From: Escherichia coli
GTDB lineage: Bacteria; Pseudomonadota; Gammaproteobacteria; Enterobacterales; Enterobacteriaceae
NCBI RefSeq assembly: GCF_003790525.1
Contig: NZ_CP033636.1
Reading direction: 5' to 3' (one strand)
Length of the DNA: 64,000 bases
The position numbers and the translations under genes were made by a program. Of the stretch, positions 3,323-22,685 are shown piece by piece (the first letter of the stretch is position 1; every line of letters begins with the position of its first letter). The notes under the pieces are model-generated. The model was not told the DNA's origin. It ran no database searches and was given only the letters and a program-made list of their open reading frames with translations.

Positions 3323-4522
3323 TCAGCGATCGGCTCGTTGCCCTGCGCCGCTCCAAAGCCCGCGACGCAGCGCCGGCAGGCAGAGCAAGTAGAGGGCAGC
3401 GCCTGCAATCCATGCCCACCCGTTCCACGTTGTTATAGAAGCCGCATAGATCGCCGTGAAGAGGAGGGGTCCGACGATCGAGGTCAGGCTGGTGAGCGCC
3501 GCCAGTGAGCCTTGCAGCTGCCCCTGACGTTCCTCATCCACCTGCCTGGACAACATTGCTTGCAGCGCCGGCATTCCGATGCCACCCGAAGCAAGCAGGA
3601 CCATGATCGGGAACGCCATCCATCCCCGTGTCGCGAAGGCAAGCAGGATGTAGCCTGTGCCGTCGGCAATCATTCCGAGCATGAGTGCCCGCCTTTCGCC
3701 GAGCCGGGCGGCTACAGGGCCGGTGATCATTGCCTGGGCGAGTGAATGCAGAATGCCAAATGCGGCAAGCGAAATGCCGATCGTGGTCGCGTCCCAGTGA
3801 AAGCGATCCTCGCCGAAAATGACCCAAAGCGCGGCCGGCACCTGTCCGACAAGTTGCATGATGAAGAAGACCGCCATCAGGGCGGCGGCGACGGTCATGC
3901 CCCGGGCCCACCGGAACGAAGCGAGCGGGTTGAGAGCCTCCCGGCGTAACGGCCGGCGTTCGCCTTTGTGCGACTCCGGCAAAAGGAAACAGCCCGTCAG
4001 GAAATTGAGGCCGTTCAAGGCTGCCGCGGCGAAGAACGGAGCGTGGGGGGAGAAACCGCCCATCAGCCCACCGAGCACAGGTCCCGCGACCATCCCGAAC
4101 CCGAAACAGGCGCTCATGAAGCCGAAGTGCCGCGCGCGCTCATCGCCATCAGTGATATCGGCAATATAAGCGCCGGCTACCGCCCCAGTCGCCCCGGTGA
4201 TGCCGGCCACGATCCGCCCGATATAGAGAACCCAAAGGAAAGGCGTCGTCGCCATGATGGCGTAGTCGACAGCAGCGCCGGCCAGCGAGACGAGCAAGAC
4301 CGGCCGCCGCCCGAAACGATCCGACAGCGCGCCCAGCACAGGTGCGCAGGCAAATTGCATCAACGCATACAGCGCCAGCAGAATGCCATAGTGGGCGGTG
4401 ACGTCGTTCGAGTGAACCAGATCGCGCAGGAGGCCCGGCAGCACCGGCATAATCAGGCCGATGCCGACAGCGTCGAGCGCGACAGTGCTCAGAATTACGA
4501 TCAGGGGTCTGTTGGGTTTCAC
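3323..4522 (-). CDS. tetA: tetracycline efflux MFS transporter TetA(A)
   Basis: Translation matches TetA(A) from recall (KPNRPLIVILSTVALDAVGIGLIMPVLPGLLRDL...); start placed at the GTG giving 399 aa; the ORF track extends 25 codons further upstream. Confidence 0.9.
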   Translation of the reverse strand: MKPNRPLIVILSTVALDAVGIGLIMPVLPGLLRDLVHSNDVTAHYGILLALYALMQFACAPVLGALSDRFGRRPVLLVSLAGAAVDYAIMATTPFLWVLYIGRIVAGITGATGAVAGAYIADITDGDERARHFGFMSACFGFGMVAGPVLGGLMGGFSPHAPFFAAAALNGLNFLTGCFLLPESHKGERRPLRREALNPLASFRWARGMTVAAALMAVFFIMQLVGQVPAALWVIFGEDRFHWDATTIGISLAAFGILHSLAQAMITGPVAARLGERRALMLGMIADGTGYILLAFATRGWMAFPIMVLLASGGIGMPALQAMLSRQVDEERQGQLQGSLAALTSLTSIVGPLLFTAIYAASITTWNGWAWIAGAALYLLCLPALRRGLWSGAGQRADR

Positions 4523-5391: not shown

Positions 5392-5669
5392 ATGCCCTGC
5401 CCTAGCGTCCAAGCCTCACGGCCGCGCTCGGCCTCTCTGGCGGCCTTCTGGCGCTCCTGCTGCGGCGTCCGCTCGTGGGCCGTGGCGCGGGTCCGCGCGC
5501 CGGCCTCGTGCGCCTGGCGCTCGCGGGCGAGGTCCAGGGCGGCCGTCTTCACGTTCTGCCTTGCGCAGATGAGATAGGAGAGCATGAAAAACCTCGGGGC
5601 AGCCATCGAATGATGCCATCTACAGGGGTTAAAATAACCACCATCATTTCATAACAATACCTGCTGACT

Positions 5670-8858: not shown

Positions 8859-9176
8859 TTTGAACGGACGGAAAAATCTGGGGTTCCGGCGTAGTACCCC
8901 TATCACCTCCACATTTTTGCAACAGTGCCTTATAAATGGCAGCCTTATGTTTACTTGCCAAGATGGGCTACCATATGATGTTTTATACTGAGCAATATTA
9001 ATATTATCTTTAATGGAAAAATTAAGCCCACTAAGTGACCCACTGCTATATGGCTCTATTGTGAAGACGCCTGAGGGTAAAAATTTATACATGGTTGTCC
9101 CTATGTCTATTATTGCAAGGTTGACAATATTATTCGTTTTATAAATTTGAGCGTTTAAAATCACACATCAAAGCAA

Positions 9177-9833
9177 TTAGTCAGGATAAACAACAATACC
9201 CAGTGCTTCGAGAATCAGTTCTTGCTGCCAGGCTGCAATTTTGATACCTGATGTATCGACTTTGCGGGGATCTAAACCGTCGAGTTCGGCGTGGCATAAA
9301 TTGGCACCCTGTAGGCTAAATTGCCCCCAGACATCTTCGGAAAAAACACCTCGACTTAAGTCTGACTCTTTCAGTGATGCACCCGCTAGGTTCGTTCCTA
9401 TCCAGCGATTTTCAAACAACTCACATTTTTCTAAACAAACCCTCTCCATATTGGCATAGGAAAGATTACATCCAGAAATAAATGCTGAGCAAAAGTACAT
9501 ACGATTACTCACTTGATGGGCAAAGTTTGTTCGGGAAAAGTTGGCACCTTTTAAATCACACGCACGGAACTCTATACCGTAGCAATTGGCATTACTGAAG
9601 TTTGCCATCGCAAGTTGGCATTGTTGGAAACTTGCATCACGAAGATCTGCGACATCAAAGTGGCAGCCTTCGATATCACCCTGTTCAATGAACTTGCAGT
9701 TGACGAATGTCGTATCACGCAAGTTAGCACGTCGAAAGTCGCTGCGAATGAATGTGCAAGCGGTGAAGGTGAGATCACTTAAGTCTTTATGTGAAAAGTT
9801 GTGGTGCCGATATGTATGATTGTAGGTTTCCAT
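9177..9833 (-). CDS. qnrS1: pentapeptide-repeat quinolone-resistance protein QnrS1
   Basis: 218-aa translation (METYNHTYRHHNFSHKDLSDLTFTACTF...ALGIVVYPD) matches QnrS1 from recall; tandem pentapeptide repeats visible. Confidence 0.9.
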   Translation of the reverse strand: METYNHTYRHHNFSHKDLSDLTFTACTFIRSDFRRANLRDTTFVNCKFIEQGDIEGCHFDVADLRDASFQQCQLAMANFSNANCYGIEFRACDLKGANFSRTNFAHQVSNRMYFCSAFISGCNLSYANMERVCLEKCELFENRWIGTNLAGASLKESDLSRGVFSEDVWGQFSLQGANLCHAELDGLDPRKVDTSGIKIAAWQQELILEALGIVVYPD

Positions 9834-10136: not shown

Positions 10137-10847
10137 TAGACTGGCCCCATAGATCACCAGACACTTCGACTCTCTTAAAATAAGAGGTAGTCTTGGAACT
10201 ATGTTTAATACCAGTCAGAACGATAAGATGGTTGAAGTGTTATCAGGACCTGAGCGGCGTCGGCGTCGTACACCGCAGGAAAAAATTGCCATTATTCAGC
10301 AGACTATGGAGCCCGGTATGACCGTGTCTCATGTCGCGCGCCTGCATGGCATCAATGCAAACCAGATATTCAAATGGCGCAAGCAATATTAAGACGGTTC
10401 ACTGACGGCTGTTGCATCGGGCGAGGAAGTGGTGCCGGCCTCCGAACTCGCTGCCGCCAATAAGCAAATTCGCGAACTCCAGCGCCTTCTGGGCAAAAAG
10501 ACGATGGAAGCCGAGATACTCAAAGAGGCCGTGGAGTTCGGCCGGGCAAAAAAATGGATTGCGCATGCGCCCTCGTTGCCTGGGAACGACGAATAAGCGA
10601 CGTTTGCAGAAGTCTTAGCGTGTCGCGTGCGCAGTTGAGCATTCGGGTTCACCGGCCATCTGACTGACAGGATCGCAGACGGCAGCCCCGTTCTGACGAT
10701 ACCACCGTATTGTCCCGGATAAACATGGCGGTGGCTGACCTGCCGACGTATGGTTATCGCCGTGTGTGGGCGCTGCTGCGACGGGAGTCGGAGCGGGACG
10801 GCCTGCCTGTGGTTAATGCAAAGCGGGTGTATCGCATTATGAGAACG
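10137..10847 (+). mobile_element. IS3-family (IS2-like) remnant: orfA with an in-frame nonsense codon, orfB cut by IS26
   Basis: Left end TAGACTGGCCCC resembles IS2 IRL; the orfA frame 10201-10596 carries TAA at 10390-10392 where IS2 InsC continues QEGSL; sequence stops at IS26 (10848). Confidence 0.6.
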
Positions 10848-11667
10848 GGCACTGTTGCAAATAGTCGGTGGTGATAAACTTATCATCCCCTTTTGCTGAT
10901 GGAGCTGCACATGAACCCATTCAAAGGCCGGCATTTTCAGCGTGACATCATTCTGTGGGCCGTACGCTGGTACTGCAAATACGGCATCAGTTACCGTGAG
11001 CTGCAGGAGATGCTGGCTGAACGCGGAGTGAATGTCGATCACTCCACGATTTACCGCTGGGTTCAGCGTTATGCGCCTGAAATGGAAAAACGGCTGCGCT
11101 GGTACTGGCGTAACCCTTCCGATCTTTGCCCGTGGCACATGGATGAAACCTACGTGAAGGTCAATGGCCGCTGGGCGTATCTGTACCGGGCCGTCGACAG
11201 CCGGGGCCGCACTGTCGATTTTTATCTCTCCTCCCGTCGTAACAGCAAAGCTGCATACCGGTTTCTGGGTAAAATCCTCAACAACGTGAAGAAGTGGCAG
11301 ATCCCGCGATTCATCAACACGGATAAAGCGCCCGCCTATGGTCGCGCGCTTGCTCTGCTCAAACGCGAAGGCCGGTGCCCGTCTGACGTTGAACACCGAC
11401 AGATTAAGTACCGGAACAACATGATTGAATGCGATCATGGCAAACTGAAACGGATAATCGGCGCCACGCTGGGATTTAAATCCATGAAGACGGCTTACGC
11501 CACCATCAAAGGTATTGAGGTGATGCGTGCACTACGCAAAGGCCAGGCCTCAGCATTTTATTATGGTGATCCCCTGGGCGAAATGCGCCTGGTAAGCAGA
11601 GTTTTTGAAATGTAAGGCCTTTGAATAAGACAAAAGGCTGCCTCATCGCTAACTTTGCAACAGTGCC
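10848..11667 (+). mobile_element. IS26 copy 1 (820 bp, 14-bp terminal IRs GGCACTGTTGCAAA)
   Basis: Both IRs read directly at 10848-10861 and 11654-11667; length exactly 820 bp; no flanking 8-bp direct repeat. Confidence 0.95.
10911..11615 (+). CDS. tnp26: IS26 transposase Tnp26 (234 aa), carries V171M relative to copies 2 and 3
   Basis: Translation [21 protein letters not shown]...; codon AAC ATG ATT gives N-M-I where the other copies have N-V-I. Confidence 0.95.
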
Positions 11668-12673
11668 CACTAGTGAGGGGCGGCAGCGCATCAAGCGGTG
11701 AGCGCACTCCGGCACCGCCAACTTTCAGCACATGCGTGTAAATCATCGTCGTAGAGACGTCGGAATGGCCGAGCAGATCCTGCACGGTTCGAATGTCGTA
11801 ACCGCTGCGGAGCAAGGCCGTCGCGAACGAGTGGCGGAGGGTGTGCGGTGTGGCGGGCTTCGTGATGCCTGCTTGTTCTACGGCACGTTTGAAGGCGCGC
11901 TGAAAGGTCTGGTCATACATGTGATGGCGACGCACGACACCGCTCCGTGGATCGGTCGAATGCGTGTGCTGCGCAAAAACCCAGAACCACGGCCAGGAAT
12001 GCCCGGCGCGCGGATACTTCCGCTCAAGGGCGTCGGGAAGCGCAACGCCGCTGCGGCCCTCGGCCTGGTCCTTCAGCCACCATGCCCGTGCACGCGACAG
12101 CTGCTCGCGCAGGCTGGGTGCCAAGCTCTCGGGTAACATCAAGGCCCGATCCTTGGAGCCCTTGCCCTCCCGCACGATGATCGTGCCGTGATCGAAATCC
12201 AGATCCTTGACCCGCAGTTGCAAACCCTCACTGATCCGCATGCCCGTTCCATACAGAAGCTGGGCGAACAAACGATGCTCGCCTTCCAGAAAACCGAGGA
12301 TGCGAACCACTTCATCCGGGGTCAGCACCACCGGCAAGCGCCGCGACGGCCGAGGTCTTCCGATCTCCTGAAGCCAGGGCAGATCCGTGCACAGCACCTT
12401 GCCGTAGAAGAACAGCAAGGCCGCCAATGCCTGACGATGCGTGGAGACCGAAACCTTGCGCTCGTTCGCCAGCCAGGACAGAAATGCCTCGACTTCGCTG
12501 CTGCCCAAGGTTGCCGGGTGACGCACACCGTGGAAACGGATGAAGGCACGAACCCAGTGGACATAAGCCTGTTCGGTTCGTAAGCTGTAATGCAAGTAGC
12601 GTATGCGCTCACGCAACTGGTCCAGAACCTTGACCGAACGCAGCGGTGGTAACGGCGCAGTGGCGGTTTTCAT
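11668..12673 (-). pseudogene. intI1: class 1 integron integrase IntI1, 3' end disrupted by IS26 (nearly full length)
   Basis: Translation [20 protein letters not shown]... matches IntI1; about 335 native codons, then the reading frame runs into IS26. Confidence 0.9.
12558..12586 (+). promoter_or_regulatory. integron cassette promoter Pc, weak variant (TGGACA-N17-TAAGCT)
   Basis: Hexamers and 17-bp spacer read directly inside the intI1 coding region, oriented toward the cassettes. Confidence 0.75.
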
Positions 12674-17482: not shown

Positions 17483-18721
<1,239 letters not shown>

Positions 18722-18868: not shown

Positions 18869-19740
18869 ATATCGGGCGGATCGTGGCCGGCATCACCGGG
18901 GCGACTGGGGCGGTAGCCGGCGCTTATATTGCCGATATCACTGATGGCGATGAGCGCGCGCGGCACTTCGGCTTCATGAGCGCCTGTTTCGGGTTCGGGA
19001 TGGTCGCGGGACCTGTGCTCGGTGGGCTGATGGGCGGTTTCTCCCCCCACGCTCCGTTCTTCGCCGCGGCAGCCTTGAACGGCCTCAATTTCCTGACGGG
19101 CTGTTTCCTTTTGCCGGAGTCGCACAAAGGCGAACGCCGGCCGTTACGCCGGGAGGCTCTCAACCCGCTCGCTTCGTTCCGGTGGGCCCGGGGCATGACC
19201 GTCGTCGCCGCCCTGATGGCGGTCTTCTTCATCATGCAACTTGTCGGACAGGTGCCGGCCGCGCTTTGGGTCATTTTCGGCGAGGATCGCTTTCACTGGG
19301 ACGCGACCACGATCGGCATTTCGCTTGCCGCATTTGGCATTCTGCATTCACTCGCCCAGGCAATGATCACCGGCCCTGTAGCCGCCCGGCTCGGCGAAAG
19401 GCGGGCACTCATGCTCGGAATGATTGCCGACGGCACAGGCTACATCCTGCTTGCCTTCGCGACACGGGGATGGATGGCGTTCCCGATCATGGTCCTGCTT
19501 GCTTCGGGTGGCATCGGAATGCCGGCGCTGCAAGCAATGTTGTCCAGGCAGGTGGATGAGGAACGTCAGGGGCAGCTGCAAGGCTCACTGGCGGCGCTCA
19601 CCAGCCTGACCTCGATCGTCGGACCCCTCCTCTTCACGGCGATCTATGCGGCTTCTATAACAACGTGGAACGGGTGGGCATGGATTGCAGGCGCTGCCCT
19701 CTACTTGCTCTGCCTGCCGGCGCTGCGTCGCGGGCTTTGG
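18869..19740 (+). pseudogene. tetA: second, 5'-truncated copy of tetA(A); its 3' end is also replaced after codon ...RRGLW
   Basis: Translation matches the C-terminal ~280 aa of TetA(A); the DNA diverges from the complete copy after GGGCTTTGG at 19740. Confidence 0.85.
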
Positions 19741-19925
19741 AGAAATTCTTCAAATTCCCGTTGCACATAGCCCGGCAATTCCTTTCCCTGCTCTGCCATA
19801 AGCGCAGCGAATGCCGGGTAATACTCGTCAACGATCTGATAGAGAAGGGTTTGCTCGGGTCGGTGGCTCTGGTAACGACCAGTATCCCGATCCCGGCTGG
19901 CCGTCCTGGCCGCCACATGAGGCAT
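19741..19925 (-). pseudogene. IS91-family ISCR2-type transposase, N-terminal ~62 codons only
   Basis: Translation MPHVAARTASRDRDTGRYQSHRPEQTLLYQIVDEYYPAFAALMAEQGKELPGYVQREFEEFL recalled as the ISCR2 Tnp N-terminus; reading frame then enters the tetA fragment. Confidence 0.6.
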
Positions 19926-21800: not shown

Positions 21801-22685
21801 TCAGCGTTCCAGCCCCCTCTGCCGCCCTAACTGCCACGACACCGACCCGCCCTGCACGATGCCCATAACCTCGCGGCCGAGTTGGCGGTCGATGATCGGC
21901 CGCCACGGGACAAGGGTGAACTCATGGGATTTCTCGACCACGGCGAACTTGCCGCTCGATAGATGCACGGTTCCGGTAAACTTGCCGCTGACGCTCTCGC
22001 CGTCCGTGGCGGCGCGGAACGGCAGGCCCTTACTCAAAGCCATATCCGATCCGACGCCGGCTACCTCGCGCTCCCGCAGGATGGCGAGAAGGTTGCGCCG
22101 GTAGAAGACGCGGCTGTCCCGGCTGCGGGTGGCGTCGCCCTGTTCGATATGGTGCTCGCGGCGCTGGTCCATGGCTTCGCGGACTTGTTGCCCGAAGCCG
22201 GTTGGCGCAAGGTCGGCCGTCTCGCCGTGGATCAGCCGCCGGTCCAGCCAGGTCGCGCCGTCCGATCCGATCTGTTTGTTCAGATCGACCGGGGAAAGGA
22301 CGCGAACGCTGGCCTGACTGTCTCGGCCGGCGTCATGGGCGGCGGCACGGCTGACCAGATCATCGGGGATGCGCCATTGGTCGGCGTCGATCCGCTCGAC
22401 GATACCGGCCCGGCGTAGCGCCTCCAGCCGGCGCACATGGGCATCGACATAGCCCTCATAGTCGCCGCCTGGAACGCGGCACGTATAGGAAGAATAAACG
22501 CCCTTTTCACCCAAGTCCAACAGCTTTGGACCGCAGTTGACTCTTTCGACACCCCTGCGATGCAACCCAATCCGGCTGACGGGGAGCCAGCAACGCTGAA
22601 AATTTACCCTCCTCTTTCCCACTAGCGGCTCCTTTTCCGACAACCAGCACGGCGGATCCCTGCCGCGGCGCTGTGAACGCAGCAT
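21801..22685 (-). CDS. relaxase-like (virD2-like) protein fragment commonly found between ISCR2 and floR
   Basis: 294-aa ORF in the position expected for the virD2-like remnant of ISCR2-floR modules; identity by recall only. Confidence 0.45.
   Translation of the reverse strand: MLRSQRRGRDPPCWLSEKEPLVGKRRVNFQRCWLPVSRIGLHRRGVERVNCGPKLLDLGEKGVYSSYTCRVPGGDYEGYVDAHVRRLEALRRAGIVERIDADQWRIPDDLVSRAAAHDAGRDSQASVRVLSPVDLNKQIGSDGATWLDRRLIHGETADLAPTGFGQQVREAMDQRREHHIEQGDATRSRDSRVFYRRNLLAILREREVAGVGSDMALSKGLPFRAATDGESVSGKFTGTVHLSSGKFAVVEKSHEFTLVPWRPIIDRQLGREVMGIVQGGSVSWQLGRQRGLER

Follow-up and report, generated by a model that had tools for sequence, protein, structure and literature searches.

The window, by which we denote the complete stretch of 64,000 nucleotides analysed here (Escherichia coli, contig NZ_CP033636.1), carries a multiresistance region of an IncHI2 plasmid that is near-identical (99.9% over 25 kb) to pNDM33-1 and pNDM-TJ33, two plasmids described in PMC8407110. 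The region contains three copies of IS26. ISKpn19, qnrS1 (9177..9833, minus strand) and a decayed IS2-like remnant of the IS3 family (10201..10847, plus strand) lead up to copy 1 (10848..11667, plus strand), which cuts the TnpB of the remnant at residue ~97. Copy 1 is followed by intI1 without its last 8 bp (11668..12673, minus strand), arr-2, cmlA5, blaOXA-10, aadA1 and a dfrA14 cassette, which borders one side of copy 2 (17483..18302, plus strand). On the other side of copy 2 lie a blaTEM remnant, a tet(A) remnant, floR, IS1006 (23548-24366, 819 bp, an element of the IS26 family), IS5075 and TnAs3, the last of which adjoins copy 3 (29503..30322, plus strand), beyond which the plasmid backbone begins. 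The open reading frame of intI1 runs 107 nt into copy 1, down to position 11561 on the minus strand, creating a 370-aa fusion whose C-terminus consists of about 35 foreign residues. The IS2-like remnant contains in-frame stops in the orfA and orfB frames alike, and it was therefore decayed, or already defective, before or after its truncation by IS26.

Several repeats and relics surround these elements. A solitary perfect 14-bp end of the IS26 type in IRR orientation, without an IS26 body, is located in the ISKpn19/qnrS1 interval (8916-8929) and could be the remnant of an earlier IS26 or the terminus of another element sharing it. A full and a truncated tet(A), oriented oppositely, form a perfect inverted repeat of 874 nt (3351-4224 and 18869-19742), through which the intervening ~14.6-kb segment with copies 1 and 2 could potentially be inverted. 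Within tnpA of TnAs3, an in-frame length difference of 15 bp to pNDM33-1 is found at ~28247, and related plasmids have the transposase gene in either a 2,952-nt or a 2,967-nt form. Lastly, direct repeats with 78-86% identity (140-1020 and 26154-27034) are apparently related segments of Tn3-family elements.

Alignment of the 820-bp copies shows that all three IS26 differ from each other, in agreement with the initial annotation. Copy 1 is full-length and bounded by perfect 14-bp terminal inverted repeats (IRL, GGCACTGTTGCAAA, 10848..10861, plus strand; IRR, 11654..11667, minus strand), and its tnp26 (10911..11615, plus strand) encodes 234 aa plus stop. It is separated from copy 2, a canonical IS26 with the transposase WP_001067855.1, by a single mismatch, A for G at IS26 nt 574 (window position 11421). 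As the tnp26 frame starts at nt 64 of the element (window position 10911), nt 574-576 constitute codon 171 (11421..11423, plus strand), and the ATG of copy 1 and the GTG of copies 2 and 3, which had been noted before, are read directly from the sequence; the resulting V171M transposase is RefSeq WP_086525284.1. Copies 1 and 2 are thus identical at 819 of 820 nucleotides and at 233 of 234 amino acids. Copy 3 differs from copy 2 by a silent change at nt 459 (G>A) and by a GG>AA exchange at nt 613-614 causing G184N (WP_001067858.1), the combination that, according to PMC9412624 and PMC9019673, defines IS26-v1. Copy 1 has G184 and the canonical bases at nt 459, 613 and 614 and is accordingly not IS26-v1. 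Although the change from GTG to ATG might create an internal start at codon 171, the sole Shine-Dalgarno-like element upstream is a weak GGA.

In related plasmids, the v1 allele was found at the site of copy 3 only together with the same right-hand backbone flank (AATCTTCC...), the site being otherwise occupied by canonical IS26. With G184N, the family-profile score increases by about 2-2.6 bits, indicating that N resembles the family consensus more than G does.

[quoted passage not shown] Its transposase scores 275.3 bits against NCBIfam NF033587 (cut-off 125) and 164.7 bits against Pfam PF13610 (cut-off 27). Under the ISfinder rule for isoforms (>95% nucleotide and >98% amino acid identity, as quoted in PMC6807381), copy 1 is an IS26 isoform. 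We regard it as an ordinary IS26 and find no sign of a novel type of element.

None of the three copies in the window is flanked by an 8-bp target-site duplication (TSD). The flanks of copy 1 are unrelated (left, TGAGAACG; right, CACTAGTG), as is expected once flanks have been replaced after insertion, and a comparison of the 8-bp flanks of all three copies, in which reverse complements were included, revealed no match.

A one-base difference within a multi-copy repeat, a setting prone to polishing errors, might be suspected to be a sequencing or assembly error of this record. This explanation has next to no probability, as 87 independent PLSDB plasmids, which come from several countries and bacterial genera, have the identical base at the identical junction, and the exact V171M protein is encoded on 323 contigs of a large protein collection, in which the entry Q6SJ60_ECOLX (at least 1,000 contigs) represents the G184N protein. 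The independent records of pNDM33-1 and pNDM-TJ33 have the same three alleles at the matching three junctions, and a Salmonella plasmid from Wuhan carries V171M at the copy-1 junction. Because 574A recurs at the same junction in independent plasmids, sequencing error is excluded, and the V171M change is genuine and inherited.

To determine the frequency of the allele, we used a 41-mer centred on the variant, such that a megablast hit was seeded only when the variant base was present. In this survey, for which the initial annotation had called, 574A was found at 94 places in 91 of 72,556 PLSDB plasmids and at 77 places in 74 of 5,426 complete E. coli genomes, 74 of these places being plasmid-borne and three chromosomal. 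In the same genomes, 574G (canonical at nt 574 and thus including IS26-v1) occurs at 21,869 places in 3,354 genomes (median 5, maximum 52 per genome), and IS26-v1, identified by AA at nt 613-614, at 5,426 places in 1,674 genomes (median 3, maximum 18). The V171M allele accordingly makes up 77 of about 21,950 IS26 copies (~0.35%). It has a median of one and a maximum of two copies per genome and is single-copy in 71 of the 74 E. coli carriers, while the replicons hosting it have 2-14 IS26 ends each. The carrier plasmids range from 40 to 407 kb, have unrelated replicon types and were found in Escherichia, Klebsiella, Salmonella, Enterobacter, Shigella, Leclercia and Citrobacter.

Linkage of the allele to its surroundings was counted in PLSDB with composite queries joining allele and flank. 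Of the 91 carriers, 87 (96%) have the IS2-like remnant that adjoins qnrS1 as left flank, making the remnant the constant left neighbour of the allele, and 84 (92%) have intI1 minus 8 bp as right flank. Likewise, of the 24 longest contigs with a gene for exactly this V171M protein, all but one (23) have qnrS1 on the left, so that the ISKpn19-qnrS1 module accompanies nearly all V171M copies. The junction of IS26 with the shortened intI1, regardless of the allele, is present in 791 PLSDB plasmids. V171M is thus a rare marker of one widely travelled qnrS1-IS26-integron junction. Such shared flanks make it very improbable that nt 574 is a recurrent mutation site at which the allele arose several times independently, even though a copy with IS26-v1 background also carries 574A (plasmid pEC6622-1) and the arr-2/cmlA5, dfrA12 and dfrA14 cassette arrays are each found with both alleles.

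The same junction exists with the canonical base. In the IncX1 plasmid CP010168, which has G at nt 574, only two of 5,420 bases around copy 1 differ, one of them being nt 574 itself, and canonical IS26 occupies the left junction, on the qnrS1 side, in about 90 PLSDB records. V is found at position 171 in IS1006 and most relatives, which identifies A as the derived state, and given the near-identical module with canonical G, the best interpretation of V171M is a point mutation that happened once, long ago, and has since travelled with the module. As the alleles are split nearly 1:1 at the left junction (87 versus about 90), the single origin is an argument from parsimony and not a proof.

The integron segment bracketed by copies 1 and 2 also occurs elsewhere, its left copy being either V171M (locus L010) or canonical (locus L016). 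Since this bracketed unit recurs, copies 1 and 2 were probably not acquired separately. The initial annotation had inferred independent acquisitions or divergence instead of recent duplication of one copy. Its negative half is borne out, as no copy is a fresh duplicate of another; of its two alternatives, divergence applies to copy 1 and predates this plasmid, the allele having been inherited together with the junction (87 of 91 carriers), and copy 3 represents a distinct, long-known lineage, IS26-v1. That the mutation arose within this plasmid, following a local IS26 duplication, would agree with the single base separating copies 1 and 2, but it is extremely improbable, because the allele with both flanks resides in plasmids whose replicon types are unrelated and whose sizes span 40 to 407 kb, and no copy has a TSD or a flank pattern suggesting local copy-in. 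The three alleles of the window would rather have come together by piecewise assembly from IS26-bounded segments than by duplication in place.

Linkage between allele and flanks is strong but not complete. Two loci have identical flanks on both sides and differ in the allele (G in L003, A in L006), and the arrays with both alleles, mentioned above, follow the same pattern. In another V171M carrier (L011), the right flank has been exchanged and is now mph(A). The IncHI2 plasmid pEC6622-1 (NZ_CP096588.1) contains, at 3389-4208, a hybrid IS26 combining 459A, 574A and 613-614AA, whose transposase (V171M+G184N) is WP_248638087.1. As this plasmid also holds a standard V171M copy, gene conversion is favoured, and the hybrid likely resulted from conversion between IS26 copies. 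More generally, the allele swaps fit homologous recombination or gene conversion among IS26 copies. Conversion of a single-residue marker has been observed during the targeted conservative reaction, for which branch migration of a Holliday junction was proposed (Harmer & Hall, PMC7885326). Part of the "canonical" calls could, however, be artefacts that arose when repeats were polished with short reads. The IS26 neighbouring the hybrid in pEC6622-1 has another single change (nt 379 C>A).

At the protein level, residue 171 lies two residues ahead of the catalytic E173 within the most conserved motif, NN-V-I-E-x-DH. A search of the PDB for a solved transposase structure of the IS6/IS26 family gave only weak matches to retroviral integrases. 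In the AlphaFold model (mean pLDDT 91.6), residue 171 is the second residue of a predicted helix (170-184) that holds E173 and the invariant K180 and ends at G184, the site changed in IS26-v1. To assess the variability of the position, we compared the 150 best-ranking family representatives that a search among 1.84 billion proteins had retrieved. In these, N169, N170, E173, D175 and K180 vary little or not at all, whereas relatives with less than 90% identity have V (48), I (29), R (5), G (4), L (3) or T (2) at position 171; Met was absent there from all 150. Compared to the canonical transposase, V171M changes the Pfam score from 164.3 to 164.7 bits (+0.4) and the NCBIfam score from 275.6 to 275.3 bits (-0.3). 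These data point to a tolerated substitution, and the allele is probably near-neutral. None of the papers covered by a full-text search mentions V171M of IS26.

Two carriers provide indirect evidence on the mobility of V171M copies. One is a Salmonella contig (L012) with a V171M IS26 that is inserted into a Gifsy-2-like side-tail-fibre gene and flanked by an 8-bp duplication, AAATATCG, of which the uninterrupted Gifsy-2 gene has a single copy; the reconstructed empty site matches Salmonella prophage Gifsy-2 and has no match in the E. coli genomes. [quoted passage not shown] This fresh TSD-flanked insertion and the adjacent deletion precise to the IS end indicate that V171M copies can still move, and the V171M IS26 is, judged from these footprints, probably still active. 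Alternatively, canonical Tnp26 encoded by other IS26 copies in the same host could have carried out both events in trans, even though a preference of Tnp26 for acting in cis is expected (PMC7885326).

A different reading is that V171M alters the behaviour of the transposase and that the allele persists through this property, as a hypomorph in copy-in, as a hyperactive variant like G184N, or by failing to cooperate with canonical Tnp26 in the targeted conservative reaction. The position of residue 171, two before E173 and in the predicted helix that ends at the hyperactive-variant site G184, is compatible with such an effect, as is the absence of Met from the 150 best representatives. The allele is single-copy in nearly all its E. 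coli genomes, other IS26 alleles having medians of 3-5, and the near-absence of multi-copy 574A from hosts with 2-14 IS26 ends would fit reduced copy-in activity; a young allele, however, would equally have a low copy number. For IS1006/IS1008, it was shown that both partners of the targeted reaction must make the same transposase (PMC7885326). Against these points stand the conservative nature of the hydrophobic swap at a position where relatives have V, I, L, R, G or T, the essentially unchanged profile scores, the insertion and the adjacent deletion seen with V171M copies, and the exchange of right flanks in some carriers such as L011. On balance, we consider altered behaviour unlikely. A more specific version, in which V171M shifts the activity or partner compatibility of Tnp26 and thereby turns copy 1 into a comparatively inert, "locked" boundary stabilising the qnrS1-integron junction, would account for the wide spread of a single-copy allele as a passenger, and we consider it quite unlikely.

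The explanation that we prefer for the whole set of observations, and to which we assign a probability of roughly 0.8, is one old G>A mutation that was carried along with its junction, is near-neutral and left a transposase that probably works. According to this explanation, the transition at nt 574 most likely arose once, in an IS26 that already sat between the module of ISKpn19, qnrS1 and the IS2 remnant and intI1 minus 8 bp. The allele would then have been a mostly passive passenger as the module moved among IncHI2, IncF, IncX, IncN and other plasmids and into a few chromosomes, with occasional reshuffling of 574A by recombination or gene conversion among IS26 copies. Its protein product differs from the canonical one by a conservative exchange of hydrophobic residues. 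The position concerned varies within the family and lies near the beginning of the predicted helix with the catalytic E173. The allele, its distribution, its linkage to the flanks and the events precise to the IS end are direct observations; the single origin, the near-neutrality and the retained catalytic activity are inferences.

The mechanistic importance of the allele is small, as it represents an IS26 with one tolerated amino-acid change. As an epidemiological marker, which is its main use, 574A could be employed to trace the module of qnrS1, IS26 and truncated intI1 through IncHI2, IncF, IncX and IncN plasmids and chromosomes of E. coli, Salmonella, Klebsiella and other hosts. It can also expose gene conversion, as with the loci that have the same flanks and different alleles and with the V171M+G184N hybrid. 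In general, the IS26 copies of one resistance region are not interchangeable, and collapsing or polishing of repeats can erase such markers.

Among known elements, copy 1 is closest to canonical IS26 (WP_001067855.1), with which it shares the length, the identical 14-bp ends, the 705-bp gene and the D78/D138/E173 triad, and from which it differs by nt 574 G>A and V171M. IS1006, located between two of the IS26 copies, shares the 14-bp ends without a mismatch, and its transposase (85% identity to Tnp26) has V at the equivalent of residue 171, but it is a separate IS with about 73% nucleotide identity. V171M belongs to the same class of isoforms, with 1-3 base differences and one amino-acid change, as IS26-v2 to -v4, minor variants named by Harmer, Pong & Hall 2021 (J Antimicrob Chemother 76:2213; as cited in PMC12540391); since v1 and v3 both have G184N, only v2 or v4 could match V171M among the named variants. 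A further parallel is IS26-v1 (IS15-delta-1 / IS15DI, G184N), for which enhanced cointegration activity was reported (Pong et al. 2019, as cited in PMC9019673, PMC9412624 and PMC8477213). Like IS26-v1, V171M is a natural allele with one residue changed in the catalytic domain, within the predicted helix 170-184. Unlike IS26-v1, which has three base changes, is common and has a measured higher activity, V171M affects a different residue, is rare and is found as a single copy.
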